Of a stretch of DNA of 64,000 nt, positions 15,634-34,749 are shown in pieces. The translations under genes and the position numbers were made by a program. The notes beneath the pieces were generated by a model. The model made no database searches. It saw nothing but the letters and a program-made list of their open reading frames with translations, and was not told the DNA's origin. The DNA lies in contig JADFZK010000001.1 in assembly GCA_015232565.1 (NCBI GenBank), positions 13,160 to 77,159 of the forward strand. The letters are read 5' to 3'. Positions within the stretch are counted from its first letter, which is position 1. Each line of letters starts with the position of its first letter. Source of the stretch: Candidatus Omnitrophota bacterium (GTDB taxonomy: Bacteria > Omnitrophota > Gorgyraeia > Zapsychrales > Fredricksoniimonadaceae).

Positions 15634-17928
15634 ATGCTTAACACATTAACCCTTCATACTCGAATTCTCCTGGGCATAATTCTTGCGGCGGGTGTTGTGG
15701 CTTTTGCGGTGGCTCACGAGAAGCTTACTTTTGCTAACCAACCCATATTTGAACTCTCTCGAACTACGTCCTGGCAAGCCAGCAAGAACCTGATCTACTA
15801 TGGCTCGTCCGGCCCCGTGGTGGAAACACTGAATTCCCATGCTTTGTGGAAGAAATTCGTCCTTAGTTTCAGCCTGGCCAATCCGTTGACCGCCGGCGTG
15901 GTCTATGATATCCGCTCCGAGGGCTGGTACCGGTTTTTTATGTTCAACCGGCCGCAAAGAACCTTGATAGCGGGGCAGAATATAAATGGCGCTATTCGTA
16001 TTGACCGTTCGTGGCCGTTGGAACTTCCTGCCGGTGAGGATCTAGTTTTGCCGTTAACGCTGGAAGTGGATGCCGCGCAGGCAGTTTTGCGCCTGGCGGG
16101 TAAACCGCTGGCATCTTTTGAGGCCGCCATAAAAGTGCCGGCGCGCTTTGGTTTGTATACCGAGCAGGCTACGGTGCGTAATAATGTTTTCCTGAATATT
16201 TTGGTAACCGGTGAGCTGGCCGACGGCCGGGCGGTGAGCCTGGGGCCGGAAAGTTATCAGGACTTCGACCGGGGCAAGCCGCTGGCGCGGCTTTGGACTG
16301 TTCCGGGAATAGGTGCGGTTATTTTGTTGTATGTGCTGGCTATTCTTTTTCTGGTTGTGTTGAAAAATAGCGGACCCGGGGCAATTGCGGTTGGGGGGAA
16401 CCATCCGGGCCGGGCATTGGATATGGCAGGGTTGATCCTGTATGCTTTAGCCGGAGCGGTGGTTTTTGTGAAGGCCTGGCAGTTGGGGCACAAGGTGGCC
16501 TTCTATCCGGCTTACTGGCAGACCATGCCGGCGCTGTTATGCGTTATGTCGATGGATATTCTTCTTCTGGGCTTAAGCTGGTTCTATGCCCGCCGGTTCA
16601 TTCGGCTTTCTCCTTTACTGGTCTTTGTGGTGCTGCCGGTTTTTCTCTATGGGGTGCATATTATCAACCTGAACCTTTTGCATTGGCCGGATCCCTGGTT
16701 CTTAAGAGGAGTGCTTGGCTTGCTGGCCTTACCGATATTGTTTATCAGCAAAGAGCAGGTGGCGGAGTTAAAGAATATTGCCGGCTCGATCTTCAAGGTT
16801 AACCGGTATAACGGGCTGGTTTTATTGTGGCTGGTTTATGTCTCATTATATTTCCTGGAATATAATTTCCGTATGCCCCGCCCGCTTTTTGGCGACGAGG
16901 CCAACCTGTGGTTTGCCGCCGCCCGGAACATGATCCACAATGGCGTCCTGGAGGCTCATTTAGCCGGCTATCCGGCGGGTGGTTACCATCCTTTCGGGAT
17001 ACCTTTTTTGACGGCTATTCCCGGCTTGCTCTGGGGTAGCGGTGATGAAAGCCTGATTTTCTTCATGCCGTTGTTCAATATTATCGTGTTCACGGTTTTC
17101 TTATTGCGTTTACGGCAGCAGCCGGGCCTTTTTCTTTTTTTCTACGCGGCTTCTTTCGTGGTATGTGATTACGCCGGGTTGATCGGTGCTTTGTTGTTCC
17201 GCTTGGTTTACGGGGAAGGTTGGTCGGGGCTTTATTTTCTGGTGATGGGCGCCGAGATCATCCGTTTGAGCCGTAACGGCAAGATCACCGACTGGCGTTG
17301 CTGGCTTGGGCTGGGCATGGCGGCCGGGCTGACTCTGCTTACGAAAAGGCCGGTATATTACTGGGGCGCGATTTTTCTTTTGACCGCGGCGGTTTGCTAT
17401 TTTAGAACGGGCTGTTCGCTCCGGCTTTTGCGTAATTTTCTGGCCGGGGTGGCGGTGTTCTTTTTGCCGGTTGGCGCCTGGGGGTGGCTGGCGCACCAGC
17501 ATGGTATCGGGTCGGCCGTCTCGGTAACGGGGACTATGTTTGGCCCGGGCAGTTGGCATTTTAACTTGGGGATACTGGACTGGCGGGCCATGATGGCCTG
17601 GTCGTATGTTAGTCCGCTGGCCGGTTATTATTTGCTGGGCGCTCTGGTGCTTTGCCTGGCGGCCTGGCGGCGCAGTGCCAGTGTGCATTTATTCCCGCCG
17701 TTGACCCTGCTCATCTTTGTGACCGGATACTATGTCTTTGGTTTTCAAAGCGATTGGACCAGTTCTTCGGTTAGGTACTACATGCCGGCGGCTTTATTGA
17801 TCTTATACCTGGCCGGGCTGGCTCTGGAGGACTGGTTACAGCGTGCGGCCGGTCGGGCGCCAAAGGCGGCGGTGTTCTTATACGGAGTGGCAGGCCTGGC
17901 AATTATTTCCGGGATGGTTATCCTATGA
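15634..17928 (+). CDS. GT-C superfamily polytopic membrane glycosyltransferase (ArnT/PMT-like) with an N-terminal periplasmic domain of about 230 aa
   Basis: 764 aa. After one N-terminal transmembrane helix and a soluble domain come at least 12 hydrophobic helices. The FGDEANLW motif sits in the first periplasmic loop, as in GT39/GT83 enzymes. Confidence 0.75.
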   Translation: MLNTLTLHTRILLGIILAAGVVAFAVAHEKLTFANQPIFELSRTTSWQASKNLIYYGSSGPVVETLNSHALWKKFVLSFSLANPLTAGVVYDIRSEGWYRFFMFNRPQRTLIAGQNINGAIRIDRSWPLELPAGEDLVLPLTLEVDAAQAVLRLAGKPLASFEAAIKVPARFGLYTEQATVRNNVFLNILVTGELADGRAVSLGPESYQDFDRGKPLARLWTVPGIGAVILLYVLAILFLVVLKNSGPGAIAVGGNHPGRALDMAGLILYALAGAVVFVKAWQLGHKVAFYPAYWQTMPALLCVMSMDILLLGLSWFYARRFIRLSPLLVFVVLPVFLYGVHIINLNLLHWPDPWFLRGVLGLLALPILFISKEQVAELKNIAGSIFKVNRYNGLVLLWLVYVSLYFLEYNFRMPRPLFGDEANLWFAAARNMIHNGVLEAHLAGYPAGGYHPFGIPFLTAIPGLLWGSGDESLIFFMPLFNIIVFTVFLLRLRQQPGLFLFFYAASFVVCDYAGLIGALLFRLVYGEGWSGLYFLVMGAEIIRLSRNGKITDWRCWLGLGMAAGLTLLTKRPVYYWGAIFLLTAAVCYFRTGCSLRLLRNFLAGVAVFFLPVGAWGWLAHQHGIGSAVSVTGTMFGPGSWHFNLGILDWRAMMAWSYVSPLAGYYLLGALVLCLAAWRRSASVHLFPPLTLLIFVTGYYVFGFQSDWTSSSVRYYMPAALLILYLAGLALEDWLQRAAGRAPKAAVFLYGVAGLAIISGMVIL

Positions 17929-18959
17929 TGCGTTTGCCGGTTTTCAATCTAGCCCGGGCGGTGCCGGCTTCGCTGGTACTGGCGCTTATTGATCTGGTGG
18001 TTTTTATTCTGGCTTACCGGTCATTTAAAGAAGTTTCTTTAAGCCTGGTGGCGTCGCGGGCTTGTTCGATGAGTATTAATTACGTCTTTATAAAGAAGGC
18101 GGTGTATTTCTCCGGCCGCAAGAATTATTGGGTTTTTGGCAAGTATCTGTTGTCGGTTATTTTCTTCAGCCTGGTTTCGTACGCGGGAATGGTCTTGCTG
18201 ATGGAACAGCTGGCGGTCAGCGTGGTGGCCGCCAAGCTGATGGTAGAGACGGTGCTTTTCACGTTGACCTTTCTGGTCCAGCGGGACCTGGTGTTCGTTA
18301 CCGACGGAGCCCGGCAGAAGACGGATTGGGACCGGTATTACCAAAAGCCGTACCAGGCGGCCCGTTTTTCAAGGAGGATCACGCAAAAGCATATTCTGGG
18401 GAAGATCCGGAAGTATGCGCCCAAGGACCCGTCGGGGCTTGCGATAATTGAACTGGGAGGGGCGAACAGCTGTTTTATTGACAGTATCCTTAAGGCCATT
18501 CGCCCGCGCGAGTACCATGTGGTCGACAATAACGCGGTGGGACTATTGAAACTTAAAGAGCGTACGGCAGGTTTGAGCAATGTGTTCTTGTATCATCAGG
18601 ATGTCCTGACGTTCCAGGCGCCCAAAAAGCTGGACCTGGCTTTTAGTACCGGCTTGATCGAGCATTTTAGTGCCAAAGATGTTGAGCGGGTTGTAAAAGC
18701 CCATTTTTCTGCAGTTAAGCCCGGCGGGGTGGTTTTGTTGACTTTTCCCCGGGCTACCTGGCTTTATCAGCTCACGCGTTTCTGGGCGGTATTGTTCCGG
18801 TTATGGATATTCACCGATGAGAAGCCTTTGGATAAAGAAGAGATCCTGTCCTTGCTGAGCGAACAGGGCGAGATCTTGTACGCTACCACCATATGGCCGA
18901 TATTTTTAACTCAAATGCTGGTGGTCATCAGGAAAACAGCCTATGATGCTGAGGTGTAA
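17925..18959 (+). CDS. Fusion protein: GtrA-family membrane domain plus class I SAM-dependent methyltransferase
   Basis: ATGA overlap with the upstream gene. The N-terminal roughly 120 aa carry four transmembrane helices with the GtrA signature SMSINYVFIKKAVYF. The C-terminal part has IELGGANSCF, LDLAFSTGLIEHF and KPGGVVLLTFP. Confidence 0.8.
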   Translation: MMRLPVFNLARAVPASLVLALIDLVVFILAYRSFKEVSLSLVASRACSMSINYVFIKKAVYFSGRKNYWVFGKYLLSVIFFSLVSYAGMVLLMEQLAVSVVAAKLMVETVLFTLTFLVQRDLVFVTDGARQKTDWDRYYQKPYQAARFSRRITQKHILGKIRKYAPKDPSGLAIIELGGANSCFIDSILKAIRPREYHVVDNNAVGLLKLKERTAGLSNVFLYHQDVLTFQAPKKLDLAFSTGLIEHFSAKDVERVVKAHFSAVKPGGVVLLTFPRATWLYQLTRFWAVLFRLWIFTDEKPLDKEEILSLLSEQGEILYATTIWPIFLTQMLVVIRKTAYDAEV

Positions 18960-18967
18960 GGATTGGA

Positions 18968-19684
18968 TCAGAATACTGCCGGCGGGATCTGGTCCAGAGG
19001 AATGCCAGCGGGTGGTTCCTGGGGGCATTGACCCAGCTTGAAGCAACAGGCAAGCGCGATAGCCAGGGCTTGTTTCTGGGCGAACTGGATGTTCTGAAAG
19101 AGTTTCTCGGCCTGGGTGTCGGTGGTGGTGTCACGGCCGGAGAATATTTGCTGGTAGGTACGCGAGGTCAGCATATATTTAACGCTGGCCAGGGGGTCGA
19201 GCTTAACGGCGTCGCTCATCAGCATATACGAACGTTCATAATCATGGGTTTGATAAAGGGTGAGGCCGAGGTTAAATTTCGACCAGAACAGGGCGGGGTT
19301 TAAATAATAAGCTTTCTGAAAGTTTTCGGCGGCGGCAGCCGGGTTGCCTGAATGGTATTCACAGACACCGTTAAAGGTGTAAGCTTCGGGAATTTTGGGC
19401 ATTGCCGTAACCAGGTTCTGATAGTATGATCTGTATTCCTGCCATTCGGCGGCGGTGACTGCCCGGCGGGAAAACAACAGCTCCTGGAGCGCAGTAAAGC
19501 CGGGCATATTGAAATTCAGGCTGGTGATCTCGGCATTCTTTTTGGTCAGGGCGCGTTGATGCGCGATCCTGGCTAAAGGTGCGGAGGTGCTGTCTTTGGC
19601 AGTGTGATCCACGCACCACAAAAGTATTAAAGCCAGGGAAAAGAAGGCGGCGGTCAGCAGGGAGTATTTTTTTATTGGGCGCAT
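18968..19684 (-). CDS. Secreted TPR-like repeat protein
   Basis: Signal peptide MRPIKKYSLLTAAFFSLALILLWC, and helical repeats of the form AAENFQKAYYLNPALFWSKFNLGLTLYQTHDYERSY. It is the only minus-strand gene in the island. Confidence 0.7.
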   Translation of the reverse strand: MRPIKKYSLLTAAFFSLALILLWCVDHTAKDSTSAPLARIAHQRALTKKNAEITSLNFNMPGFTALQELLFSRRAVTAAEWQEYRSYYQNLVTAMPKIPEAYTFNGVCEYHSGNPAAAAENFQKAYYLNPALFWSKFNLGLTLYQTHDYERSYMLMSDAVKLDPLASVKYMLTSRTYQQIFSGRDTTTDTQAEKLFQNIQFAQKQALAIALACCFKLGQCPQEPPAGIPLDQIPPAVF

Positions 19685-19698
19685 GGGTGAATTATACT

Positions 19699-21120
19699 AT
19701 GTTTAAAATCAATAGGAACAGTTTCTTTACCGGCTTTTCTCCGGTCTGGGCGGCCATTTTGCTTAGTGCGCTCTATTGGCTGTACCTTATGCCCATCACC
19801 TTTCCCTTAATGGTCAATGATTCTTTGGGGTATCGGGATTTGGGCCAGCGGATAATGTCGCATGGCGTGTTCTCTTATTTGAATGGCGGAGTGAATCGGG
19901 AACCGCTTTATCCTTGTTTCCTGGCGCTGGCTATGTGGCTGGGGAAGCTGGTTCGCATGGATTATCAGCTCGTGCAGTATGTTATGCAATTTACCCTGCT
20001 TTTGGCGACCCAGTTCATTATGGTGGAAGTTCTGCGGTGGTTAAAGATCAATAAATGGATCATTGCCGGCACGGTGCTTTATTTTGGTTTCTCCCCGGCG
20101 GTAATTGGCGCCGCGGCCAGCGGATGGTCGGAGGTGCTTACCTTTCCCCTGGGTATCGGGGTCATTTTTATATTGTGCCAGTTTTGGGAAGCTCTGGCGC
20201 CGGACGGGAAGCACAGATTCAAGCTTGCGGTTACCGCGGCGGCGCTTTGCTTTATTATGTGCCTGGTGAAAAGTGTATTTGAATATGTAGCGATCTTGCT
20301 GGTGGTCCTGTTGTTCGTCCTGGCTTTTCTGGCTTTGGACCGCAAGAGATATCTGGCGCCATTGATCGTTTTCACGCTGGTCCTTTTTGGCGGGATACTT
20401 TCTTATAAAACGGCCAGTTATTTTGCTAATGGAGAGTTTACACTGAGTCAGCAGAGTGCGTTTGGCAAGTACGCGTTCTATGCCAGCACGGTTAGCAAAA
20501 CGCGACCGTTCACCATGAAAGATGTTAAATCGGGTTTACTGAATGCTACCGGTGGTTCGCTGTGCGACCGCTGGGATCCGGAGGGTTGCGCCAGATGGAA
20601 ATTGACCGTGGTCGACGGGATAGCTTTAGAAAAGCAGAAAGAATTGGCCGGCCGTAAGGATAAAGAAAGCGTGCTGGGCGGATTGATCGTCCAGAACCTG
20701 ACCGCGCATCCCTTCCGGTTTGCGGCGTTATATGGCACTGAACTGATCGGGATGTTCTTTTGGGAGTCGTCCCGCGAGGGTTTTGTGGTGTTCCCGGCAT
20801 TGGTGGTTCGCATTTTGAAGAATCCTTTCTGGGAGGTGTGGATCATTTATATCGTCGGGATCCTGACCTTGAGCGCGGTTGCCCTGGGGGCGGGTTATTG
20901 TTGGCGTCGTTTCTCAAAAGTGAGCTTGCTTCAGGACCGGGCCTTTATATTTCTGGTATTTTCCGGGCTGGTCGTGTTTTCTTTTCTGGGGGGTACGGCC
21001 TTGATATTCTTGCTTAAAAGATATGTGTATCCGTTCGTTCCCGTGTATCTGGTGATCATCGGGTGGGCCATTCAGCAGGTTTTCCTACAAAAGGCGGGAT
21101 ATGGATCTGAAACCAAATAA
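19699..21120 (+). CDS. GT-C family membrane glycosyltransferase (PMT_2/ArnT-like)
   Basis: Start taken at the internal Met MFKINRN.... The longer ORF-track start would overlap the TPR gene. It has about 11 transmembrane helices and an N-terminal loop NDSLGYRDLGQRI...NREPLYP. TATACT lies directly upstream of the ATG. Confidence 0.8.
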   Translation: MFKINRNSFFTGFSPVWAAILLSALYWLYLMPITFPLMVNDSLGYRDLGQRIMSHGVFSYLNGGVNREPLYPCFLALAMWLGKLVRMDYQLVQYVMQFTLLLATQFIMVEVLRWLKINKWIIAGTVLYFGFSPAVIGAAASGWSEVLTFPLGIGVIFILCQFWEALAPDGKHRFKLAVTAAALCFIMCLVKSVFEYVAILLVVLLFVLAFLALDRKRYLAPLIVFTLVLFGGILSYKTASYFANGEFTLSQQSAFGKYAFYASTVSKTRPFTMKDVKSGLLNATGGSLCDRWDPEGCARWKLTVVDGIALEKQKELAGRKDKESVLGGLIVQNLTAHPFRFAALYGTELIGMFFWESSREGFVVFPALVVRILKNPFWEVWIIYIVGILTLSAVALGAGYCWRRFSKVSLLQDRAFIFLVFSGLVVFSFLGGTALIFLLKRYVYPFVPVYLVIIGWAIQQVFLQKAGYGSETK

Positions 21121-22093
21121 AGCGCCGTTGATCTCGGTGGTGTTTTCTTTTCGTAACGAGGCTTTGGGCATTGCCGAACTGGTTAAACGCTGCCGCAAGG
21201 TAATGGCGGAGTTGCGTTCCCGGGGCAGGATCAGTAATCATGAACTGATCTTTGTTAATGACGCTTCCACGGACAATTCGGTTTTTATTCTGATGGAGCT
21301 GGCCGCGGAATTGCATGATATACGGATCCTGAACATGTCCCGTAATTTCGGGGTGGCTCCGTGTGTAATGGCCGGGCTGGCTTATGCCCGGGGCGAGGTC
21401 GTGGTGTATATGGACGCCGACCTGCAGGATCCGCCGGAGATCATTCCCGAGATGCTGGCGGCCTGGCAGGCGGGTGGTGTGGATGTGGTACATACCGTGC
21501 GGCGCTCGCGGCAGGGTGAGCCGGCCTTGAAGTTATGGGTGACGGGGATAGGTTATGCGATATTGAATCGTTATTGCGCGGTCAAGATCCCGAAGGAAGC
21601 CGGGGATTTCAAACTGCTTTCGCGCCGGGTGGTGGATCATTTGTTGACGCTTAAAGAGCAGAATCCTTTTATGCGCGGGCTGGTGTCCTGGGTGGGGTTC
21701 CGGCAGGTCTTTATTTCGTACGACCGCGCGGCCCGTTTTAGCGGCGCCAGCAAATTCTTCGTGCTGAGCCGTAAAGTTATCAGCAACTTTTTTAATTCGG
21801 CTATTGTGAACTTCTCGGCGGTACCCTTGCAGATCGCTTCTTACCTGGGGCTCACGGCGATCTTTGTTGACCTTTTCTTTATCGGGCATGTCTTGATCGA
21901 AAAATTAGCGGGACGTGCTATTCCCGGCTGGACGGCCATTATGACCATAGTGTTATTCATCGGCGGGATACAGCTTTTCTGTGTGGGCATGATCGGGCTG
22001 TATTTGAATGCCGTGCATGAACAGTCCAAGATGCGGCCGCGGTATATTGTTGAGTCAACGTATGGCTTTCCCGGGGAGAATGGCGGTGCGTAA
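21101..22093 (+). CDS. GT2 polyprenyl-phosphate sugar synthase (ArnC/DPM1/GtrB-like)
   Basis: Motifs ISVVFSFRNE, VNDASTDNS and DADLQDPPEIIPEML, followed by two C-terminal transmembrane helices as in ArnC and GtrB. Confidence 0.85.
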   Translation: MDLKPNKAPLISVVFSFRNEALGIAELVKRCRKVMAELRSRGRISNHELIFVNDASTDNSVFILMELAAELHDIRILNMSRNFGVAPCVMAGLAYARGEVVVYMDADLQDPPEIIPEMLAAWQAGGVDVVHTVRRSRQGEPALKLWVTGIGYAILNRYCAVKIPKEAGDFKLLSRRVVDHLLTLKEQNPFMRGLVSWVGFRQVFISYDRAARFSGASKFFVLSRKVISNFFNSAIVNFSAVPLQIASYLGLTAIFVDLFFIGHVLIEKLAGRAIPGWTAIMTIVLFIGGIQLFCVGMIGLYLNAVHEQSKMRPRYIVESTYGFPGENGGA

Positions 22094-23114
22094 CCGGTAT
22101 TTATTATTGAAGGCCAAGCTTTTGGCCCATGCCATCTGGACCGGCAAGCTCTCCTTGCGCAAGGTCATTAATGTCCTGGTTTGCAGTGCGGCGTTCACTC
22201 TGCGTCGGACGCGCTCCGGTGCGGCGCCTTTTATCCTGAGCCTGGAGGTCGGCAATGAGTGCAATGCCAATTGCCTTTTTTGCCGGGACGCCAAAGGCCG
22301 GATCTATGATACCGATCCTAAAGCTTTGCCCCTGGGCGGTATAAGTAAGGGCGTGATGCCCTTTGAAATGGCGGCCGATCTTATCCGGCAATGCTCAAAA
22401 GATTCTTTAATAGCGGTCTTATATACCAACGGCGAGCCCTTGCTTTACAAGGATCTGCCGCGGCTTATCCAGGCTTGTTCCCGGGTGAGATTGCTTTCCA
22501 TGATCGCGACCAACGGGCTTTTGCTGAACGAGAAGAACATTACGGAAATGCTCTCGGCCGGGATCGATTTTATTAAAGTGCAAATGAGCGGTTTTACCCA
22601 GGACGTTTATGCCGTGCAGGTACGCTTTGGCAATGTGGAGCGGCTCAAAGATAATATCCGGCTGTTGGCCCGCAAGCGGGATGAAATGAAATGCCCCACG
22701 GTGTTGATGCTGGACTTTATTGCGTACAGTTACAATTCTCATCAATTGCCCGACGTGCGGGCTTTTTGCCGTGAGCTGGGAGTGTCGCTTAATATCCGTC
22801 CCGGGAATCCGCGCGGAGGCCTGGAGGGCCGGGAGCCGGAGCTTTCGGCGGAGGCTTTGCCTTTGCCGGGCGGCTGTGACTGGCCTTGGAAAGGCCTGCA
22901 GGTTAATTTTAATGGTGAGGTCTTAATGTGTTGCGACGGAGTGACCTTTAGCGGCAGCCAGCCCTATGCCGTGTTCCGTCCCGGTGATCCGGTGGCGGTT
23001 ATCTGGAACGGAGCAAAGGCGCGCCAGGCACGGGCAACGCTGGCCACTCAAGGCCGCGGAGCCATTCCCATCTGCGCCCAGTGTTACCGCAAAGACCTGG
23101 CCTTCAAATGGTAG
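22080..23114 (+). CDS. Radical SAM protein with a C-terminal SPASM/twitch-like cysteine cluster
   Basis: CNANCLFC (CxxxCxxC) near the N-terminus. C-terminal cysteines MCCDGVTFSG...CAQCYRK. GGGGAGA ribosome-binding site before the ATG at 22080. Confidence 0.8.
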   Translation: MAVRNRYLLLKAKLLAHAIWTGKLSLRKVINVLVCSAAFTLRRTRSGAAPFILSLEVGNECNANCLFCRDAKGRIYDTDPKALPLGGISKGVMPFEMAADLIRQCSKDSLIAVLYTNGEPLLYKDLPRLIQACSRVRLLSMIATNGLLLNEKNITEMLSAGIDFIKVQMSGFTQDVYAVQVRFGNVERLKDNIRLLARKRDEMKCPTVLMLDFIAYSYNSHQLPDVRAFCRELGVSLNIRPGNPRGGLEGREPELSAEALPLPGGCDWPWKGLQVNFNGEVLMCCDGVTFSGSQPYAVFRPGDPVAVIWNGAKARQARATLATQGRGAIPICAQCYRKDLAFKW

Positions 23115-23202: not shown

Positions 23203-24891
23203 ATGATCAAGAAATACGGGTTCCTTCTGGTGCTTCCTTTTATAGCCGCGCTGGTTACCCTGGCGGTTAAGTTCTCGCTGGGGCCGTATTGGTTGGGCCG
23301 TACTAGTGATCCGGCTTATTTCCATTTGGTGCAAAGCTTGTATTTGTTTAAAGGTGTGGCTCCGTTCCACATTGTGCATCCCGCCGCGCCATTGATGGCG
23401 CTGATCGTGCTGGTGGTCAAGCTTTTTAATCCCTGGGCACCGGTACCGGAACTTTTGGCCCAGGCCTTAAGCAACCCGGAGTTTTACTTAAACAGTGTTT
23501 ACTGGGTTCTTTTTACGGCCAGCTTTTTATCCTTTATTCTGGTGGGTGTGTATGCGTTTCGGCGTACTGCCAGCCGGACTTTTGCCTTGTTCTTTCAGGT
23601 GCCGGCCTTCTTGTACTTGGCTTTGCCGGGCCATGGCTGGTTCATCCTGGCCAGTGTTACGGCAGAAATGGGGTTGGTGCCGGCCATTAATTTGTTTTTT
23701 ATGTGTCTTATAAAAATTTATGCGAATCATAAAGCTGCAGCCAGTTTACGGAGCGCTTTGCTGTTTGCCCTGGCGTGCGCGTTCGGGCTGGCGCTGAAAA
23801 TTACGTTCCTGGCGGCGTTGATCGTGCCATTGTTCTTGCTTAAGGGCCGTAAAGTGCAATGCTTCTTTGTTGGGTCTGTCGCTGTTCTATTTGGGTTGTT
23901 CCTGTTCCCGGTATGGGGCCGTATGGAGTTGATAGTCTGGACGGTGGTCGGGCTGGTGACCTCTAGCGGGCCGTTGGGGTCGGGGACGCATAACGGTTTT
24001 ATTGCCTGGGACGGCATGTGGAATAACGCCGGGGTCCTGTTCCGGGATCAGTGGGCGGTTTGCGCGGTCTTTGTGGTCGGAGCTCTGTGGTCCGGGTGGA
24101 GATTGGCCCGGCGATCCGGAAGCCGGGAAGAGCGCATTATTTTGGTTCTGTGCCTGGCGGCGGGCGTGCATTTTCTGATGATAATAAAACATGGCACCTA
24201 TCGGTATTTTCAACTCGATCTGGCTTTGGCGGGAGCAGTGATGGCGTTTCTTACCCGGTCGCTGGCGGCCGCCGGATGGTGGCGGGTGCGCTGGTCGGCT
24301 ATTTTGCTGGTGGTTGTGGTGTTGCTGTCCGGCGTGCAGGGCGTGGGCCAGGCTTATGACCTTAACGGCTGGAGAAAGAAGAAGCTGGAATTTCTCGAGC
24401 GGATAAGAGCCAGGTATCCGCAGGATGTTATTTTGGGGTATTATCCTTCTTCCGGCCAGGGGAATGCCTTGTTTGTTGCCAATGATATTCGTAACGGCCG
24501 GGTGCTGGGAGATGAACTGAACCGGCTTTATCCCGGGCGGTTCTTTTTTGCCAGCTGGAACTATAGGGTAAGTGATTTCAAGGATGTGGTTTATTTGTCT
24601 GATATCCAGAAGTTGTCCGCGGGCGTTTATTTCCAGGGAGATTGTGCATTCCGTTTTGAGCAAGGCCCGTATCGGGTGACCCGGGTTGAGGAAGATGACG
24701 GCGAATGCCTTTTTCGCCTGGACAGTTCGCTGGAGCCTCGGGCGCTGGCCGAATGGTCGCGGGCCAAGACGGCCTGGAATCGGGACGATTTCTCCGGCGC
24801 CTGTCTGGCCGCGAAGAAAAGCCTGGCGTCCCGGTTTTATCCTCCGGCCCTGCCTCGGCAAATGATCCGCAGGGCGTGCGGCCAGAAATGA
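23203..24891 (+). CDS. Polytopic membrane protein, possibly a GT-C-like glycosyltransferase
   Basis: More than 12 predicted transmembrane helices and a soluble C-terminal domain of about 190 aa. The start may be at 23164 or 23203. Confidence 0.65.
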   Translation: MIKKYGFLLVLPFIAALVTLAVKFSLGPYWLGRTSDPAYFHLVQSLYLFKGVAPFHIVHPAAPLMALIVLVVKLFNPWAPVPELLAQALSNPEFYLNSVYWVLFTASFLSFILVGVYAFRRTASRTFALFFQVPAFLYLALPGHGWFILASVTAEMGLVPAINLFFMCLIKIYANHKAAASLRSALLFALACAFGLALKITFLAALIVPLFLLKGRKVQCFFVGSVAVLFGLFLFPVWGRMELIVWTVVGLVTSSGPLGSGTHNGFIAWDGMWNNAGVLFRDQWAVCAVFVVGALWSGWRLARRSGSREERIILVLCLAAGVHFLMIIKHGTYRYFQLDLALAGAVMAFLTRSLAAAGWWRVRWSAILLVVVVLLSGVQGVGQAYDLNGWRKKKLEFLERIRARYPQDVILGYYPSSGQGNALFVANDIRNGRVLGDELNRLYPGRFFFASWNYRVSDFKDVVYLSDIQKLSAGVYFQGDCAFRFEQGPYRVTRVEEDDGECLFRLDSSLEPRALAEWSRAKTAWNRDDFSGACLAAKKSLASRFYPPALPRQMIRRACGQK

Positions 24892-24942: not shown

Positions 24943-25824
24943 ATGAAAAAACTCACCGAAATATTCCAGGACCGGCCCAGAACCTTTTCATTCGAGGTCT
25001 TTCCGCCCAAGACTGACAAGGGCCGGGAGGCGCTGGAAGCCGCTTTGGTAGAGCTGGCGGGTTTGCCTTTTGATTTTATGTCGGTGACTTATGGCGCGGG
25101 CGGTTCCAGCCGGGATACTACGTCTTCCCTGGTGCGGGCGATACAGGATAAATTCAGTTTGCCGGCGGTACATCATTTCACTTGTGTCTTGCATACGCGG
25201 GCCCAGGTTAAGGCTATCCTGGATGACCTTAAGTCTTCGGGCGTCCGTAATTTGCTGGCCCTGCGCGGTGATCCGCCCCGGGATGAGCCGGACTGGGTAC
25301 CCGGGCCGGAGAACTTTAAATACAGCTCGGAACTGGTGGCGTTTATCCGTCAGCATTACGGGGATCATTTTGCGGTCGGAGTGGCCGGTTTTCCGGAAGG
25401 GCATTTGCTGGCGCCGGATAAAAGTTTCGATGCCGGGATCCTGAAAAAGAAGATAGCCGCCGGCGGAGATTTTGTGATGACCCAGTTATTTTTTGATAAT
25501 GCTCTTTATTTCGATTATGTCAAGCGTTTGCGCGCTCTGGGAGTGGAGGCACGGGTGATCCCGGGTGTTTTGCCCATTACCAATTATGAAGGCGCGGTAA
25601 ATTTTTGTAAAAGTTGCGGCGCGTCGGTGCCGGACGCAGTGCACCGGATATTTGCGCCGCTGGCCGGGGACAAGGATCAAACCCTGGCCGCCGGAACCAG
25701 TTATGCCATTAAGCAGTGCCGTGAGTTATTAGCGGGCGGGGCGCCGGGCATTCATTTTTACACTTTAAACAAGGTGGAGCCGGTGCGGACGATCATTCAG
25801 GAATTAATGCGGAGTCTTACATGA
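24943..25824 (+). CDS. metF: Methylenetetrahydrofolate reductase
   Basis: FSFEVFPPKT...MSVTYGAGGS and a length of 293 aa. Confidence 0.9.
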   Translation: MKKLTEIFQDRPRTFSFEVFPPKTDKGREALEAALVELAGLPFDFMSVTYGAGGSSRDTTSSLVRAIQDKFSLPAVHHFTCVLHTRAQVKAILDDLKSSGVRNLLALRGDPPRDEPDWVPGPENFKYSSELVAFIRQHYGDHFAVGVAGFPEGHLLAPDKSFDAGILKKKIAAGGDFVMTQLFFDNALYFDYVKRLRALGVEARVIPGVLPITNYEGAVNFCKSCGASVPDAVHRIFAPLAGDKDQTLAAGTSYAIKQCRELLAGGAPGIHFYTLNKVEPVRTIIQELMRSLT

Positions 25825-26810
25825 AGAGCCGGGCACAAAACATTTTAATTACCGGCGGGGCGGGGTATATAGGGTCGCATATGGTGCGGCTTTTACTCGA
25901 GCAAGGTTTTAAACCGGTAGTTTTCGATAACCTTTCCACCGGGCATAAGGAGTTTATCCCCAAGGGTGTCCCTTTGGTCAAGGGGGATTTGCGTGATCCA
26001 GCGGCGGTGCGGAGAGCTTTCCGAAGATATCCCGTCAGCGCGGTGGTGCATTTTGCCGCGGCTATTGTGGTGCCGGAGTCGGTAGCGGAGCCTTTGAACT
26101 ATTACGAGAACAATGTGAGCGCCACGGTTAATCTGCTGAAAGGTATGAAAGAGGCGGGAGTGCGGCGGATAGTGTTTTCGTCGAGCGCTTGTGTATATGG
26201 CAATCCGCTGAAAAGTCCGATATTAGAGAATGAGCCGCTTAAGATCGAGAATCCGTATGGCGCTACCAAGGTGATGGTCGAGCAGATCCTGGGCGATCTG
26301 GCCCGGGCGGGGTGCATTGATTTTATTGCTTTAAGGTATTTTAATGTGGCCGGAGCTCATTCCCAGGGCGGGATAGGTATCAAGATGGCCAAGCCAACGC
26401 ATCTTATCCCTAATGTAATGCGGGTGGCTTGCGGCCTGAAGAAGGAATTGGCGGTTTTCGGTGATGATTACCCCACCAAAGACGGCACTTGCGTCCGGGA
26501 TTATGTTCATGTGGTCGATTTGGTCGAAGCGCATCTTTTGGCATTGAGAGCTTTGGCTAAGGGTAAAGTTAAGAATGAAGTCATTAATCTGGGCAATGGC
26601 CGCGGTTTTTCGGTAAAAGAGGTTATTGAAGCGGCGGTTAAAGTTACCGGACGTCCGGTGCCGCATAAGGTCTTGCCGCGCCGTCCAGGCGATTCGGTTA
26701 ATGTGGTGGCGTCCTACGCCAAAGCCCGGCGCCTGCTGGGCTGGAAGCCACAGCGCGGGCTGGACACGATCCTGTCTTCTGCCTACCAGTGGGAATGTGC
26801 CGGCTCCTGA
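25821..26810 (+). CDS. galE: UDP-glucose 4-epimerase
   Basis: ILITGGAGYIGSH, YGATK and RYFNVAGAH. ATGA overlap with metF. Confidence 0.9.
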   Translation: MKSRAQNILITGGAGYIGSHMVRLLLEQGFKPVVFDNLSTGHKEFIPKGVPLVKGDLRDPAAVRRAFRRYPVSAVVHFAAAIVVPESVAEPLNYYENNVSATVNLLKGMKEAGVRRIVFSSSACVYGNPLKSPILENEPLKIENPYGATKVMVEQILGDLARAGCIDFIALRYFNVAGAHSQGGIGIKMAKPTHLIPNVMRVACGLKKELAVFGDDYPTKDGTCVRDYVHVVDLVEAHLLALRALAKGKVKNEVINLGNGRGFSVKEVIEAAVKVTGRPVPHKVLPRRPGDSVNVVASYAKARRLLGWKPQRGLDTILSSAYQWECAGS

Positions 26811-26917: not shown

Positions 26918-27493
26918 ATGGACGAGCGAGAATTCGAATTGATCAATATCATCGGCGGTGAGCTGGGGGCCAATCAAAGGGACCTTTCCCGTCAGATGAA
27001 CCTGTCTTTAGGCATGACCAACATGCTTATCCGCCGCCTTATCACCAAAGGCTACCTGCGCATCAAACAGCTTAACAAGAAGAAGGTCGAGTATCTTTTA
27101 ACGCCGCGCGGTTTCTCGGAGAAAATGCGCAAGTCGGTGCGTTATACCATGAAGACCATTGGTTCAATAGGGCTGATTCGCAGAAGTATCTCCCGTTTAT
27201 TAAGCGAACTATATGCCGAAGGCACGCGCAAGTTTTATGTGCTTGGCAGTTCTGATCTTACGCTTCTGATCGAAATGGTTGTCCGGGAAGAGGTCTTTCA
27301 GGGCTCTGAGCTGGTTCATGTTACCGAGCCGCTACAGGCAAAGGGCGATGGCGTCCTTTTGGTGTGCCGCGAGCAGTCCGAACCGGTGGCGCTGGAAGGT
27401 GTGCGTGCGGTAAATGTGGTGGAAGAACTGGCTAAAGACGAGCTCTTCGCCGGGCACCTGAGCCCGGTGCCAGCGGGGGTCCTTAATGGCTGA
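26918..27493 (+). CDS. Winged-helix (MarR-like) transcriptional regulator with a C-terminal domain of unknown function
   Basis: The N-terminal roughly 70 aa, ELINIIGGELGANQRDLSRQMNLSLGMTNMLIRRLITKGYLRI, form a wHTH. Confidence 0.7.
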   Translation: MDEREFELINIIGGELGANQRDLSRQMNLSLGMTNMLIRRLITKGYLRIKQLNKKKVEYLLTPRGFSEKMRKSVRYTMKTIGSIGLIRRSISRLLSELYAEGTRKFYVLGSSDLTLLIEMVVREEVFQGSELVHVTEPLQAKGDGVLLVCREQSEPVALEGVRAVNVVEELAKDELFAGHLSPVPAGVLNG

Positions 27494-28493
27494 AGTTGTT
27501 GATCCGTCTTTTAATGAAGTTATCGCTCTTATCCGTGCGGCTCGTGCGCAGGCTTTTCAGACGGTCAATACGGCATTGATTGACCTTTATTGGCAGTTGG
27601 GTGAATATATCAGTCGAAAGGTGATTTCTTCGGCGTGGGGAGAAGGGGTTATTGATAATCTGGCGTGTTTTATCGCGGATGGTCACCCGGACCTTAAGGG
27701 ATTTACCCGGAGTAATTTATTTAGAATGAGGCAATTGTTTGAGGCTTACCGGGATGATGAGAAAGTCGCACCGCTGGTGCGACAATTGCCCTGGGCACAT
27801 AATTTACTTGTCTTAAGCAAGTGTAAATTATCGGAAGAAAGAGAATTCTATATTCGTTTGGCGGTTCGAGATCGTTTGCCAAAAAGAGAATTGGAGCGGC
27901 AAATTGATGGGTGTCTTTTTGAAAGAAAGGTGCTGGCTCCAGTAAAAGTGTCACCACTGGTGACACTTTTATATCCTGCTGTGCAAGAAGAGTTTAAGGA
28001 TTCTTATCTGGTCGGTTTTCTGGATTTGCCCGAGCAACATTCCGAGAAAGACCTGCAAAAGGGGTTGCTTAAGGATCTTAAGAAGGTTCTTATGGAGTTA
28101 GGCCGTGATTTTTGTTTTGTTGGCGAAGAATATCGTCTTCAGGTGGGGGGGCAGGATTTTTTTGTGGACTTGTTGTTTTTTCATCGGGGTTTGTCGTGCC
28201 TGGTAGCCTTTGAAATAAAGGTAACCGATTTTAAGCCGGATTATATGGGGCAACTTGATTTTTATTTGGAAGCATTGGACCGGGATGTGCGAAAGCCGCA
28301 TGAAAAGCCGAGTATTGGCGTTCTTTTGTGTAAGTCTAAAGACGCTGAGGTTGTGGAGTATGCTTTGAGCCGCACCTTGTCGCCGGCTCTTGTGGCTGAG
28401 TATAAAACACGCTTACCGGAGAAGGCCTTTCTTCAGCAAAAACTGCGTGAATTTTATGATCTGGAGGCAGATAAGAAGGAAGGCGCGCAATGA
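27486..28493 (+). CDS. YhcG/DUF1016 family PDDEXK nuclease
   Basis: N-terminal DUF1016 helical region (LIDLYWQLGEYISRKV...LFRMRQL...LPWAHNLLVLSK) and a C-terminal PD-(D/E)xK core (DFFVDLLFFH...AFEIK). Confidence 0.8.
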   Translation: MAEVVDPSFNEVIALIRAARAQAFQTVNTALIDLYWQLGEYISRKVISSAWGEGVIDNLACFIADGHPDLKGFTRSNLFRMRQLFEAYRDDEKVAPLVRQLPWAHNLLVLSKCKLSEEREFYIRLAVRDRLPKRELERQIDGCLFERKVLAPVKVSPLVTLLYPAVQEEFKDSYLVGFLDLPEQHSEKDLQKGLLKDLKKVLMELGRDFCFVGEEYRLQVGGQDFFVDLLFFHRGLSCLVAFEIKVTDFKPDYMGQLDFYLEALDRDVRKPHEKPSIGVLLCKSKDAEVVEYALSRTLSPALVAEYKTRLPEKAFLQQKLREFYDLEADKKEGAQ

Positions 28494-28573
28494 AACGCGA
28501 CATGTAAATGAAAGGTATATGTGTTACGGCCTATTCGGGTGGTAAAGGCCTGGAGGTTTTCGACCGGGATTAG

Positions 28574-28870
28574 TTTGTAGTTAAGGTGCCGCTGGGAGCG
28601 GAAGGCGTTGATCCGGTGTCCGGGATCAATGTTGCTGACGGGCATGGCGCAGTTCAGCAGACTACCCAGAAAACTACCCAGAAAACTACCCGGCATATAC
28701 TCGCTCTTATGAGGAAGGATCCGCATATTACCCGACAGGAATTGGCGAAAGTTCTGGCCTTGACCGATGAAGGTATCAAGTATAACTTGCGGAATATGCA
28801 AAGGGACGGGATCTTAAAGCGCGTGGGCGCCGACAAAGGCGGGCACTGGGAAGTTCTGGTTAAGGAATAA
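28574..28870 (+). pseudogene. C-terminal remnant of a Schlafen/AlbA_2-HATPase_c_4-type regulator (TTQK repeat plus HTH)
   Basis: The reading frame is closed by TAG at 28571 and no N-terminal domain lies upstream. It encodes TTQKTTQKTT from a 12-nt tandem repeat at 28661-28693, followed by the typical C-terminal HTH ILALMRKDPHITRQELAKVLALTDEGIKYNLRNMQRDGILKRVGADKGGHWEVL. Confidence 0.45.
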
Positions 28871-28904
28871 GGGCGGGTTAAACGAACAGAAAGGATGGCC
28901 GGGT

Positions 28905-29648
28905 ATGAAGACCAAGATCTATAGTTTGGGCTGGGTGCCGGATATACCGGATACCAGGGATTTATACTATAGCGCTATTCGTGCCCGGGTTAAGCTGGCG
29001 CCGGCGGTGGACTTGCGGGCGGGTTGTTCGGTGGTGGAAGATCAGGGCTCGTTGGGTAGCTGTACGGCCCAGGCCCTGGCCGGGAACCTGGAATTCCTGG
29101 ATCTTTTGGCCGACGGGGCTTACGAAGATGTGAGCCGGCTGTTCATTTATTATAATGAACGGGTACTGCAGGGAGATACCACGGTGGACTCCGGCGCTTC
29201 GTTGCGTAACGGGATCAAGACCCTGGCCAAAGCCGGTGCGTGCGCGGAGAGCTTGTGGCCATATAAAATAGAGAAATTCGCTGATAAACCGGCGGCACGC
29301 TGTTATACTGAGGCCCAAAATCATCGGATCGTTTCTTATCACCGGATCACGACTGTGGAAGAAATGCTGGCCTGCCTGTCGGAAGGCTTTCCTTTTGTTT
29401 TTGGTTTTGCGGTCTATGAAAGCCTGCAAACGCCGCAGGTGGCGAAAACCGGCAAAGTGCCAATGCCCAAAAAGACCGAACGCATGCTGGGCGGGCACGC
29501 GGTGCTGGCAGTGGGTTATAACCAGAAAGATAAGCGCTTTCTGGTGCGTAACTCCTGGGGTGCAAAGTGGGGTATGAGCGGGTATTTCACCATGCCGTTC
29601 GCTTATCTGGAAACCCTGGCGGCGGATTTTTGGACGATACGGAAATAA
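28905..29648 (+). CDS. C1 family (papain-like) cysteine peptidase
   Basis: QGSLGSCTAQA provides the catalytic Cys. GGHAVLAVGYN provides the His. NSWGAKWGMSGYF supplies the Asn/Trp. Confidence 0.85.
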   Translation: MKTKIYSLGWVPDIPDTRDLYYSAIRARVKLAPAVDLRAGCSVVEDQGSLGSCTAQALAGNLEFLDLLADGAYEDVSRLFIYYNERVLQGDTTVDSGASLRNGIKTLAKAGACAESLWPYKIEKFADKPAARCYTEAQNHRIVSYHRITTVEEMLACLSEGFPFVFGFAVYESLQTPQVAKTGKVPMPKKTERMLGGHAVLAVGYNQKDKRFLVRNSWGAKWGMSGYFTMPFAYLETLAADFWTIRK

Positions 29649-29687
29649 GGAAAGAAATTCTTTGTAAAGGGATCTTTGAGGAGAGTC

Positions 29688-30671
29688 ATGGCAGATAAGA
29701 AGAAAGTACTTATTACGGGTGCTGGCGGGTTTATTGGCAGCCATTTGGTCGAACTTTGCGTTAGCCGGGGCATGAAGGTTAAAGCGTTTGTTCGTTATAA
29801 TTCCCGCAATCACTGGGGATGGCTGGAGCAAAGCCCCTGTTTAAAAGATATTGAAGTGGTGGCCGGAGATATTCGGGATTATGATTCTGTCTTTTATGCG
29901 ATGAAAGGTTGTGCTTCGGTCTTTCATCTGGCGGCTCTCATTGGCATCCCTTATTCGTATGTTTCTCCACAGGCTTATATTAAAACCAACGTTGACGGCA
30001 CTTACAATATTCTCCAGGCGGCAAAAGAGTTGGCGCTTAAGAATGTGGTAGTGACCTCGACTAGCGAGACCTACGGGACCGCGCAGTACGTTCCGATCGA
30101 TGAGAAGCATCCGGCGGTCGGGCAGTCGCCTTATTCGGCCAGCAAGATTGCGGCCGATCAGCTGGCTATCAGTTACTACCGCTCTTTCGGGTTACCGGTG
30201 CGGATCGTGCGTCCTTTTAATACGTACGGCCCAAGGCAATCGGCGCGGGCGGTGATACCGACGATCATTTCGCAGGTGCTTTCCGGCGCCCGGGAATTAA
30301 AATTGGGCAATACCGCGCCAACCAGGGATTTTACTTTTGTTAAAGATACGGCGCTGGGTTTTGTTGAAGTGTCTTTGGCCAAAAGCCTTGTAGGTGAGGC
30401 GGTAAATTTGGGAACCGGTACGGAGATTTCGGTTAATGATCTTGCGCTTAAGATCGCCGGTTTATTGGGTAAGAAGGTTAAGATAGCTTCTGAGGCCCAG
30501 CGCTTGCGCGGGGTCAAAACTGAAGTCGAACGCTTATGTTCTGATCATACCAAGGTTACGGCGCATACTGGCTGGGTACCGCGGTATGACCTTGATAAGG
30601 GCCTTAAAGAATCCATTCTTTGGATGCAGAAGAATCTGCAGTGTTATAAGGCTGATCTTTATAATGTATAG
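29688..30671 (+). CDS. NAD-dependent sugar-nucleotide epimerase/dehydratase (4,6-dehydratase-like; LegB/PseB-type candidate)
   Basis: VLITGAGGFIGSH; a catalytic triad Thr/Tyr-x3-Lys context (TSTSETYG...YSASK). GGAG ribosome-binding site before the ATG at 29688. Confidence 0.85.
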   Translation: MADKKKVLITGAGGFIGSHLVELCVSRGMKVKAFVRYNSRNHWGWLEQSPCLKDIEVVAGDIRDYDSVFYAMKGCASVFHLAALIGIPYSYVSPQAYIKTNVDGTYNILQAAKELALKNVVVTSTSETYGTAQYVPIDEKHPAVGQSPYSASKIAADQLAISYYRSFGLPVRIVRPFNTYGPRQSARAVIPTIISQVLSGARELKLGNTAPTRDFTFVKDTALGFVEVSLAKSLVGEAVNLGTGTEISVNDLALKIAGLLGKKVKIASEAQRLRGVKTEVERLCSDHTKVTAHTGWVPRYDLDKGLKESILWMQKNLQCYKADLYNV

Positions 30672-30677
30672 TTTGTT

Positions 30678-32901: not shown

Positions 32902-32906
32902 TGCGG

Positions 32907-34049: not shown

Positions 34050-34749
34050 GACTGTCTTATGTCCTCGTTTTTCGGAAGTGTCCCGTAGTTTCTTCAATCG
34101 GGATTGTCAGGTTCATACAGCGTGGACTGATGGCGCCTGTGCGCCGCGTGAGATCTTGAAAGCAGCTGAGGACCTTGGCTTGGACACGTTGGCGTTTACA
34201 GAGCACATTCGTTCCGAGAGCGTTTATTTCAAGGATTTCTTTCGCGAGATTGAAGGCCTCCGTAAAGGGTTAGTAATGAAGGTTTTTATCGGAGTGGAGA
34301 CCAAGGTTATAGATGAGGAGGGACAGTTGGATATTTCTTCGGCAGATTATGCCATGGCGGAAATTGTCCTGGGGAGTGTCCATCGTATTCCGCATAATGG
34401 CGGTTTTTATCATCCTCGTGATCTCGGACTTGAGGTGACGCTTGAAGAGGAATTCCGCTATTTAATGGCCATGTTGCGTGGCGGTCGGGTTGATGTGCTG
34501 GCTCATCCGTTTGGGATGTCACTAAGAATGTTTAATGTTTTCTCGACAGATCATTTAGAAGAGGTTATTCGAACGGCGGCTTTGACTGGCGTTGCTTTTG
34601 AGTTCAATTCCAAGTATGCCAGTCCAGTATTCTTGAAGGAAGCGGTTCGTTTTTGTCGCAAACATGATCCTTTGGTGTCGCTTGGTTCGGATGTTCATAA
34701 GATTGAGGATCTTGGCCGTTGCCGTGGGATTCTGGAAGGGTTGATATGA
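34039..34749 (+). CDS. PHP-domain metal-dependent phosphoesterase
   Basis: CQVHTAWTDG...LAFTEHIRSE...GSVHRIPHNG...LAHPFG, a pattern of metal-binding His/Asp residues. Confidence 0.7.
   Translation: MKVKTVLCPRFSEVSRSFFNRDCQVHTAWTDGACAPREILKAAEDLGLDTLAFTEHIRSESVYFKDFFREIEGLRKGLVMKVFIGVETKVIDEEGQLDISSADYAMAEIVLGSVHRIPHNGGFYHPRDLGLEVTLEEEFRYLMAMLRGGRVDVLAHPFGMSLRMFNVFSTDHLEEVIRTAALTGVAFEFNSKYASPVFLKEAVRFCRKHDPLVSLGSDVHKIEDLGRCRGILEGLI

Follow-up and report, generated by a model that had tools for sequence, protein, structure and literature searches.

A twitch-type radical SAM enzyme linked to a GtrB-type glycosyltransferase in Omnitrophota, with a possible role in tailoring polyprenyl-phosphate-linked sugars

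In a 64,000-nucleotide stretch of a Candidatus Omnitrophota genome (assembly GCA_015232565.1, contig JADFZK010000001.1, positions 13,160 to 77,159; hereafter the window), a gene encoding a radical S-adenosylmethionine (SAM) enzyme (hereafter rSAM) overlaps a gene for a predicted GtrB-type polyprenyl-phosphate hexosyltransferase of the GT2 family (hereafter GT2), and this context was found to be the defining rule of the rSAM family. Our leading proposal, to which we give somewhat less than an even chance, is that rSAM, together with the GtrB-type synthase, tailors the polyprenyl-phosphate sugar by radical chemistry, through epimerization or oxidation. The fold and cofactor set of rSAM are of a known kind, while the pairing with a lipid-carrier glycosyltransferase is new.

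Linkage of rSAM with a GtrB-type glycosyltransferase

The pair is encoded as follows:

22080..23114 (+): rSAM gene, 344 amino acids (aa); radical SAM/twitch enzyme of an unnamed, Omnitrophota-centered family
21101..22093 (+): predicted GtrB-type GT2 polyprenyl-phosphate hexosyltransferase gene, 330 aa, two C-terminal transmembrane helices; Pfam Glycos_transf_2, 97.5 bits
22080..22093 (+): 14 bp in which the end of GT2, with its stop, overlaps the beginning of rSAM, ATGGCGGTGCGTAA, as read from the sequence, with GGGGAGA just 5′ of it

The longest reading frame for rSAM opens at 22008 and ends at 23114; the ATG at 22080 is the start backed by an alignment of 40 homologs, in which the N-terminus reads "M.(R/H)N.Y". 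The 14-bp overlap and the GGGGAGA suggest translational coupling of the two genes. The initial annotation had taken 21101-22093 for a polyprenyl-phosphate-sugar synthase, and full-length homology to Synechocystis GtrB (PDB 5ekp, 229 bits, residues 10-323) agrees with this; matches to ArnC (105-114 bits) and DPMS (45 bits) were lower, and the match to the PgfS model (216 bits) fell under its cut-off of 500. The "DAD" of GT2 lies in "YMDADLQDPPE", a DXD-type motif, and its orthologs have two to three predicted transmembrane segments; judged by sequence, GT2 is thus a GtrB-type polyprenyl-phosphate hexosyltransferase.

Three contexts fetched by exact protein identity presented a GT2 of ~325-330 aa directly upstream of rSAM and overlapping it. 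For a wider scan, one genome per species was taken and the reading frames of each locus were compared with the proteins of the window, which yielded 28 non-redundant loci. An ortholog of the window GT2 (380-506 bits) was found on the same strand and within 2.2 kb of rSAM in 25 of the 28; one locus (L027) has no upstream DNA, so that the linkage holds in 25 of 27 informative loci. The two genes overlap or are directly adjacent (gap ≤80 bp) in 21 of the 28. GT2 lies 1.8 kb downstream of rSAM in L010, and in L019 and L022 two genes, without any Pfam match, are inserted between the partners; the partner GT2 of L028 (2062-3034, +) is split into two reading frames, reflecting either a frameshift or a pseudogene. 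A 77-aa reading frame matching part of rSAM (84 bits) was seen in L017 (12050-12283, +), 1 kb downstream of the intact gene, and may be a duplicated rSAM fragment.

A divergent rSAM subfamily (38-42% identity) is encoded in reversed order, directly upstream of GT2, in seven further loci (L063, L071, L077, L082, L091, L099, and L102); in L082 and L091 a 528-539-aa protein with nine transmembrane segments precedes the rSAM-GT2 pair, giving a compact three-gene unit (e.g., L082 579-4436). Since neither divergence in sequence nor a switched gene order has broken the linkage, it strongly indicates that the two genes form a functional unit. The initial annotation was therefore right to tie rSAM to a lipid-linked glycosylation module, while the position that it had called unusual is the rule for the whole family.

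The reverse is not true of GT2. In a search of metagenome contigs that started from GT2, 31 loci had complete flanks, and rSAM was present at 14 of them (8 of 13 with GT2 identity of ≥60%, and 6 of 18 with 50-59%); the other 17 had no rSAM within 4 kb, at GT2 identities of up to 67%. Since rSAM is almost never found without GT2 and GT2 is often found without rSAM, this asymmetry suggests that rSAM is accessory to the GT2 reaction and not a supplier of its donor. A conserved third gene beside the pair was looked for and discarded as an idea, as methyltransferases and B12-dependent radical SAM genes recur there without being constant.

A word-indexed search with rSAM returned 163 homologs, none of them named; the 120 that were listed have 48-65% identity, are ~340-365 aa long and carry generic annotation only, and one homolog carries the JGI label "sulfatase maturation enzyme AslB". 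The genomes that encode the family are nearly all Omnitrophota metagenome-assembled genomes, along with a few bins labeled Planctomycetales, Peribacteria, or Geobacteraceae. When 1.84 billion cluster representatives were searched exhaustively with the family profile, ~30 scored above 200 bits; a wider shoulder follows, with 221 representatives at E ≤ 1e-30, and 8,442 once the limit is E ≤ 1e-10. The shoulder relatives are of similar length, retain the N-terminal hairpin and share the twitch signature "C.W.W...G.(V/I).PCC...IW.G...R...C..C"; the NCBIfam models provide no curated name for them. One distant relative, P0212, is a fusion with two GT2 domains. Class B (B12-binding) radical SAM domains are fused N-terminally to three family members (P0121, P0129, and P0138), and class B enzymes also recur beside the rSAM-GT2 pair: three are encoded in L001 (1954-3486, 11801-13291, and 14318-15823) and at least one in L030 (3868-5457), where a further 529-aa reading frame adjoins it. 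These fusions and neighbors suggest that in some lineages radical tailoring has several steps, methylation being one example.

Domain architecture and cysteine pattern of rSAM

The residues and domains on which the class assignment turns are the following:

22260..22283 (+): CX3CX2C radical SAM cluster motif "CNANCLFC" (C61/C65/C68), invariant in 40 of 40 aligned homologs and in the divergent subfamily
22182..22184 (+): invariant C35, within a hairpin of two N-terminal helices (7-20 and 26-40); may act as a catalytic thiol or as a further ligand
22863..23099 (+): twitch domain, residues ~262-340, from the alignment of the family profile with BtrN
22875-22877 (+): C266, proposed ligand of an auxiliary [4Fe-4S] cluster, aligned with BtrN C169
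22929-22931 (+): C284, proposed auxiliary ligand, aligned with BtrN C187
23073-23075 (+): C332, proposed auxiliary ligand, aligned with BtrN C232
23082-23084 (+): C335, proposed auxiliary ligand, aligned with BtrN C235
22932-22934 (+): C285, an extra invariant Cys in the twitch domain, from the alignment of 40 and the divergent subfamily

The reading frame on the + strand and the stretches CNANCLFC, "MCCDG...", and "CAQCYRK" are present as the initial annotation had described them, and its assignment of a radical SAM enzyme was confirmed by the Pfam Radical_SAM profile (PF04055; 45.1 bits against a cut-off of 29.5). Membership in the superfamily is also evident from the invariant CX3CX2C motif (context "ECNANCLFC"), the alternation of strands and helices in an AlphaFold2 (AF2) model, and Foldseek probabilities of 1.00 to many radical SAM enzymes. 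In the 40-sequence alignment, the invariant Cys are C35, C61, C65, C68, C230, C266, C284, C285, C332, and C335, all of which except C230 are also invariant in the 38-42%-identical subfamily; "LMCCDG" holds C284 and C285, and "ICAQCYRK" holds C332 and C335. Many Arg and Lys residues are conserved as well.

The auxiliary domain aligns with the Pfam SPASM profile (31.6 bits against a cut-off of 21.5), a label that is right in the broad sense only. When the rSAM family profile was compared with all PDB sequences, the top match was BtrN (48 bits, E 8e-12), in two stretches, the second of which is the twitch domain. BtrN, the 2-deoxy-scyllo-inosamine dehydrogenase of butirosin biosynthesis (PDB 4M7T/4M7S) and the founding twitch radical SAM enzyme, ligates its auxiliary cluster with four Cys (PMC9012708). 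Because C266, C284, C332, and C335 fall on these four (numbered as in 4m7s_A), the auxiliary domain of rSAM is assigned as a single-cluster, BtrN-type twitch domain with a predicted cluster; the spacing is C-x17-C-x47-C-x2-C in rSAM and C-x17-C-x44-C-x2-C in BtrN. The two-cluster, seven-Cys SPASM type of anSME, PqqE, and AlbA (CX9-15GX4C...CX2CX5CX3C...C) was rejected on the Cys pattern and the BtrN alignment: the CX2CX5CX3C block at its core was found in none of the 40 aligned homologs, and the C-terminal domain has just five invariant Cys (266, 284, 285, 332, and 335). Of the SPASM-like auxiliary Fe-S domain that had been annotated, the domain itself thus stands, with one predicted cluster of the BtrN type instead of two.

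rSAM exceeds BtrN in length by ~95 aa. It has a conserved "RPGNPxGGLExxE" linker, a conserved helical hairpin at the N-terminus, and two extra invariant Cys (C35 and C285), and its gene context differs, being an aminoglycoside cluster for BtrN and a GtrB-type lipid-carrier glycosyltransferase here. C35 and C285 are family-specific and strictly conserved, and are predicted from the alignments to be non-ligand thiols; C285 lies directly beside the proposed ligand C284.

The AF2 model built from the family alignment had a predicted local distance difference test (pLDDT) score of 88.4 and a predicted template-modeling score (pTM) of 0.89, with pLDDT values of 93-97 in the N-terminal helices. Its Foldseek neighbors in the PDB (DesII, SuiB, BlsE, BtrN, EpeE, MoaA, PqqE, viperin, and SkfB) reached TM-scores of about 0.5-0.6 at 12-18% identity. 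A comparison with DesII and anSME had been proposed in the initial annotation; DesII was indeed the top match (TM-score 0.58/0.43, identity 15-18%), while anSMEcpe was a weak one (rank 50, TM-score 0.45), and the DesII-like TDP-sugar lyase/dehydrogenase model TIGR04426 gave 28 bits against a cut-off of 450. The lowest root-mean-square deviation was obtained with EpeE (4.6-5.0 Å; TM-score 0.53-0.57, identity 14-15%).

Naming rSAM with curated NCBIfam models was tried without success, as all matches were 6-20 times under the cut-offs, for the query and for distant relatives alike; the best was a tungsten-cofactor maturase model (51.8 bits against 380), and the weaker ones included MoaA, N_Twi_rSAM, Tes, DesII, BlsE, and PqqE. 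The best PDB match of the single sequence was GDGT-MAS (7tol, E 1e-5), and the twitch domain alone produced only spurious matches to penicillin acylase. rSAM thus represents a distinct family within the SPASM/twitch group, without a close characterized relative.

A proposed reaction and its alternatives

We propose that the [4Fe-4S] cluster held by C61, C65, and C68 of a cytoplasmic rSAM would cleave SAM to give a 5′-deoxyadenosyl radical, and that a second [4Fe-4S] cluster in the C-terminal domain would be fully ligated by C266, C284, C332, and C335. GT2 would move a hexose from a nucleotide sugar onto polyprenyl phosphate at the inner face of the membrane, and rSAM and the translationally coupled GtrB-type synthase would act as a unit, in which rSAM attacks a ring carbon of the polyprenyl-phosphate sugar by hydrogen abstraction and so converts one sugar to another. 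Return of a hydrogen from the opposite face by the thiol of C285 or C35 would give an epimer, and passage of the electron to the auxiliary cluster, as happens in BtrN, a keto-sugar. After flipping, the tailored polyprenyl-phosphate sugar would serve variable polytopic transferases of the membrane on the extracytoplasmic side.

The domain architecture, Cys pattern, and gene linkage are observed; what rSAM acts on, at which stage, and by which reaction is inferred. Action of rSAM after GT2 is favored because close GT2 relatives occur without rSAM in 17 of 31 loci, and a polyprenyl-phosphate sugar is preferred over a nucleotide sugar as the substrate because of this asymmetry and because of two precedents, the epimerization of a lipid-linked sugar ahead of GT-C transfer (PMC11127046) and the action of the radical SAM enzymes HpnJ and calditol synthase (Cds) on lipid-linked sugars (PMC13459092). 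The nearest folds include the sugar or nucleotide modifiers DesII, BlsE, BtrN, and viperin as well as the twitch epimerase EpeE, and the substrate site of BtrN is a sugar-like carbinol carbon. Of the sugar or glycoprotein modification that the initial annotation had raised, a radical modification of the sugar is the most probable reading.

Among the possible reactions we lean, with low confidence, to a redox-neutral epimerization, because of the invariant non-ligand Cys and because no conserved ketoreductase or aminotransferase partner for a keto product was found in the rSAM neighborhoods. The characterized twitch enzymes whose target is a carbinol or alpha-carbon are either dehydrogenases, such as BtrN, or, where a free Cys gives a hydrogen back, epimerases. 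In EpeE, a free Cys (C223) that serves as hydrogen-atom donor marks a twitch epimerase (PMC13012085). EpeE (YydG) combines a twitch-type single auxiliary cluster with a Cys outside the ligand set by which the radical on the substrate is quenched, and the rSAM family shares such invariant Cys; EpeE differs in being a peptide epimerase with a precursor-peptide partner, which the rSAM loci lack. A BtrN-like oxidation (two electrons, from a secondary alcohol to a ketone on a cyclitol or sugar) may instead apply, the homology between BtrN and the rSAM family being distant (48 bits), as may a dehydration or a ring rearrangement.

Several observations weigh against tailoring of a lipid-linked sugar. 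No transmembrane segment is predicted in rSAM, and its N-terminal helices are weakly amphipathic (hydrophobic moments 0.21 and 0.36). The likeness of the model to characterized radical SAM enzymes is at the level of the superfamily only, so that their chemistry cannot be carried over to rSAM. Two of the 27 informative loci (L013 and L030) have no GT2 near rSAM; in L030, from the Geobacteraceae-labeled bin, a protein with nine transmembrane segments overlaps the rSAM start, and no GT2 was found in the 8-kb contig. Finally, no link of the membrane neighbors to GT-C enzymes was found with Pfam (E ≤ 1-10), NCBIfam, PDB sequence and profile searches, or hhalign.

The main rival reading, which we hold unlikely, places rSAM before GT2: a common nucleotide sugar would be converted to an unusual sugar by a dehydration, deamination, or decarboxylation like those of DesII, BlsE, or viperin, and then loaded by the GtrB-type enzyme. 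These three nucleotide(-sugar) enzymes are among the top Foldseek matches and also appear in sequence searches, rSAM is predicted to be soluble, its conserved Arg and Lys could bind a diphosphate, and the partner GT2 is unusually well conserved (50-69% identity). Yet GT2 relatives of up to 67% identity lack rSAM at 17 of 31 loci, which makes the donor apparently independent of rSAM, and no conserved nucleotidyltransferase or other nucleoside diphosphate (NDP)-sugar gene was found beside the pair; moreover, DesII to our knowledge has no auxiliary cluster, while the auxiliary site of the rSAM family appears fully Cys-ligated. A more drastic remodeling of the lipid-linked sugar, either a contraction of the ring, giving a carbocyclic or furanose head group as has been proposed for HpnJ and calditol synthase, or an AprD4-like dehydration, strikes us as improbable. 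The gene logic of the Omnitrophota pair equals that of HpnI/HpnJ (hopanoid cyclitol ether) and Cds, for which genetics has documented that a hexose is put on a lipid by a glycosyltransferase and is afterwards rearranged by a radical SAM enzyme (PMC13459092), and the class B enzymes fused to or encoded beside family members suggest several radical steps; the proposed parallel is nevertheless limited, as no sequence relation to HpnJ or Cds was detected in the NCBIfam and PDB searches and no observation singles out ring contraction or dehydration. The acceptors also differ, being hopanoid and glycerol dialkyl glycerol tetraether in those systems and polyprenyl phosphate here, and the HpnJ and Cds products are membrane end products, while the proposed rSAM product is a donor substrate.

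We give little credence to a modification of the lipid itself (the polyprenyl carrier or another membrane lipid), of the kind performed by Tes/GDGT-MAS or HpnH. It is suggested by GDGT-MAS as the best single-sequence PDB match and by weak NCBIfam matches to Tes and, among relatives, HpnH, all of which are confined to residues 49-221, the generic radical SAM core; with the family profile, BtrN is the preferred match, twitch domain included, and the tight linkage is to a sugar-transferring enzyme, in line with the GT2 domains fused to P0212. Least probable is a protein or peptide maturase, whether an anSME-like formylglycine generator, a thioether-forming enzyme or epimerase of peptides that are ribosomally synthesized and modified after translation (RiPPs), or a maturase of a neighboring membrane protein. 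The Pfam SPASM match, the AslB label on one homolog, and the presence of SuiB, EpeE, SkfB, and PqqE among the fold neighbors would fit this reading. On the other side, the SPASM region has Cys for one auxiliary cluster only and lacks the CX2CX5CX3C block, rSAM has no N-terminal domain like a RiPP recognition element, and all NCBIfam maturase models stayed far under their cut-offs; in the 28 loci no sulfatase was found, and no conserved precursor peptide, RiPP recognition element, or small reading frame adjoins rSAM. The anSME-like function that had been considered in the initial annotation was rejected on these grounds.

Genes around the pair and significance of the linkage

The other genes of the window with a possible bearing on the pair are listed below:

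23203..24891 (+): membrane protein, polytopic, of 562 aa if started at 23203 (23164 is also possible); candidate user of the lipid-linked sugar
19699..21120 (+): polytopic membrane protein, ~473 aa (the reading frame opens at a GTG at 19579), with homologs beside the GT2-rSAM pair
15634..17928 (+): large polytopic membrane protein, 764 aa, without a Pfam or NCBIfam match
17925..18959 (+): GtrA-like domain with four transmembrane segments fused to a class I SAM methyltransferase, 344 aa; Pfam GtrA_DPMS_TM, Methyltransf_12/25/23
25821..26810 (+): GalE-like NDP-hexose 4-epimerase; Pfam Epimerase, 200.8 bits

Most loci encode large polytopic membrane proteins (~330-1,150 aa, with 4-19 predicted transmembrane segments) no more than 7 kb from the pair. 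They are extremely diverse: the 47 of them form mostly singleton clusters. The initial annotation had called three of those in the window (23203-24891, 19579-21120, and 15634-17928) membrane glycosyltransferases, a label for which no GT-C link was obtained from Pfam, PDB-sequence, or profile-profile comparisons. The protein encoded at 23203-24891 has no Pfam or NCBIfam match and is a near-orphan, with a single homolog (P0272, 24% identity) in a collection of 5.8 billion proteins, and its AF2 model was unusable (pLDDT 39.9); of the two neighbors whose conservation with rSAM had been at issue, 21101-22093 is thus conserved and 23203-24891 is not. The N-terminus of the latter protein contains a block, "R..DP.Y...G.FH..H..P..PL", that is conserved with P0272 and that appears to resemble the first-loop motif of ArnT/PMT-like GT-C enzymes. 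Homologs of the protein at 19699-21120 were found in L017 (167 bits) and L018 (189 bits), adjoining the GT2-rSAM pair in both; the window protein had no Pfam or PDB match, and its comparison with a cluster having a weak YfhO match, although the best of all-against-all hhalign comparisons of neighbor clusters, was weak (probability 16.5%). Weak precomputed YfhO and PMT_2 matches were present on other membrane proteins in L001 and L003. One membrane-neighbor family also flanks a GT2-only locus, as expected if such proteins use the GtrB product with or without rSAM.

GtrA proteins are thought to handle or flip polyprenyl-phosphate sugars. The GtrA-like domain at 17925-18959 scored just under the cut-off (PF04138, 25.4 bits against 26.1; E 1.7e-5), and the Methyltransf_12/25/23 matches were above theirs; this fusion suggests a methylation at the carrier-bound stage. 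Separate methyltransferases of ~295-300 aa are encoded beside the GT2-rSAM pair in L001, L002, and L017. Homologs of the GalE-like epimerase (119-120 bits) are found near the pair in L007 and L017, and this enzyme is a possible supplier of the GT2 donor sugar.

A methylenetetrahydrofolate reductase gene (24943-25824, +) directly follows the membrane protein gene at 23203-24891, and a B12-dependent methionine synthase gene is located near the pair in L003 (15699-19418, -) and L004; such methyl-cycle or SAM-regeneration genes may be co-located with SAM-consuming clusters, or their presence may be a coincidence. A 1259-aa reading frame of the window (6849-10628, +) was considered as a MetH by comparison with L003 and dismissed, as it had no Pfam match at E ≤ 1e-5. 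Farther downstream, a separate nonulosonic-acid-type sugar cluster (29676-38831, +) begins within a few kb, with genes for an NDP-sugar 4,6-dehydratase, a DegT aminotransferase, a CBS-domain nucleotidyltransferase, a methyltransferase, an ATP-grasp protein, NeuB, and a UDP-GlcNAc 2-epimerase-like protein; between the two sugar clusters (26918-29648, +) are genes for a winged-helix regulator, a YhcG/DUF1016 PDDEXK nuclease, and a papain-family cysteine protease. A similar helix-turn-helix gene directly follows rSAM in L007. Across the window (1-64000), almost all 2-kb bins have a positive GC skew, the cumulative skew rises near-monotonically, and nearly all long reading frames are on the + strand, consistent with a segment of a single leading-strand replichore.

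Lipid-carrier glycosylation by GtrA/GtrB/GT-C systems decorates O-antigens, teichoic acids, and proteins, and the carrier-bound sugar modifications known to us are few and made by flavin/NAD or hydrolytic enzymes. Like the three-component GtrA/GtrB/GT-C systems, the window encodes a GtrB homolog, a GtrA-like domain, and variable polytopic membrane proteins. Tailoring of a polyprenyl-phosphate sugar before its extracytoplasmic transfer is an established concept (PMC11127046): the undecaprenyl- and decaprenyl-phosphate pentofuranose systems, with epimerization of the DprE1/DprE2 type, and ArnC/ArnD also alter a lipid-linked sugar before transfer. The tailoring enzyme is a flavin/NAD epimerase pair or a deformylase in those systems and would be a radical SAM enzyme here. 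Our literature search found no paper joining a radical SAM enzyme with GtrB or polyprenyl-phosphate sugars, and a 2026 review of lipid-modifying radical SAM enzymes does not mention polyprenyl or undecaprenyl substrates.

It is possible, although we hold it with considerable doubt, that rSAM is the first radical SAM enzyme to tailor a polyprenyl-phosphate-linked sugar, an oxygen-independent counterpart of the lipid-linked epimerization of the DprE1/DprE2 type that yields a donor not makeable at the nucleotide-sugar level, and that it belongs to a new "four-component" variant of the GtrA/GtrB/GT-C system in Omnitrophota. The GT2-rSAM pair is a small, self-contained two-gene unit and is thus open to direct testing. 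If the proposal is true, it would add radical SAM enzymology as a new type of chemistry in the biosynthesis of envelope glycans, provide a first functional anchor for an unnamed clade of twitch radical SAM enzymes (the 8,442 cluster representatives at E ≤ 1e-10), and suggest that the surface of Omnitrophota, an uncultivated phylum, bears an unusual sugar.

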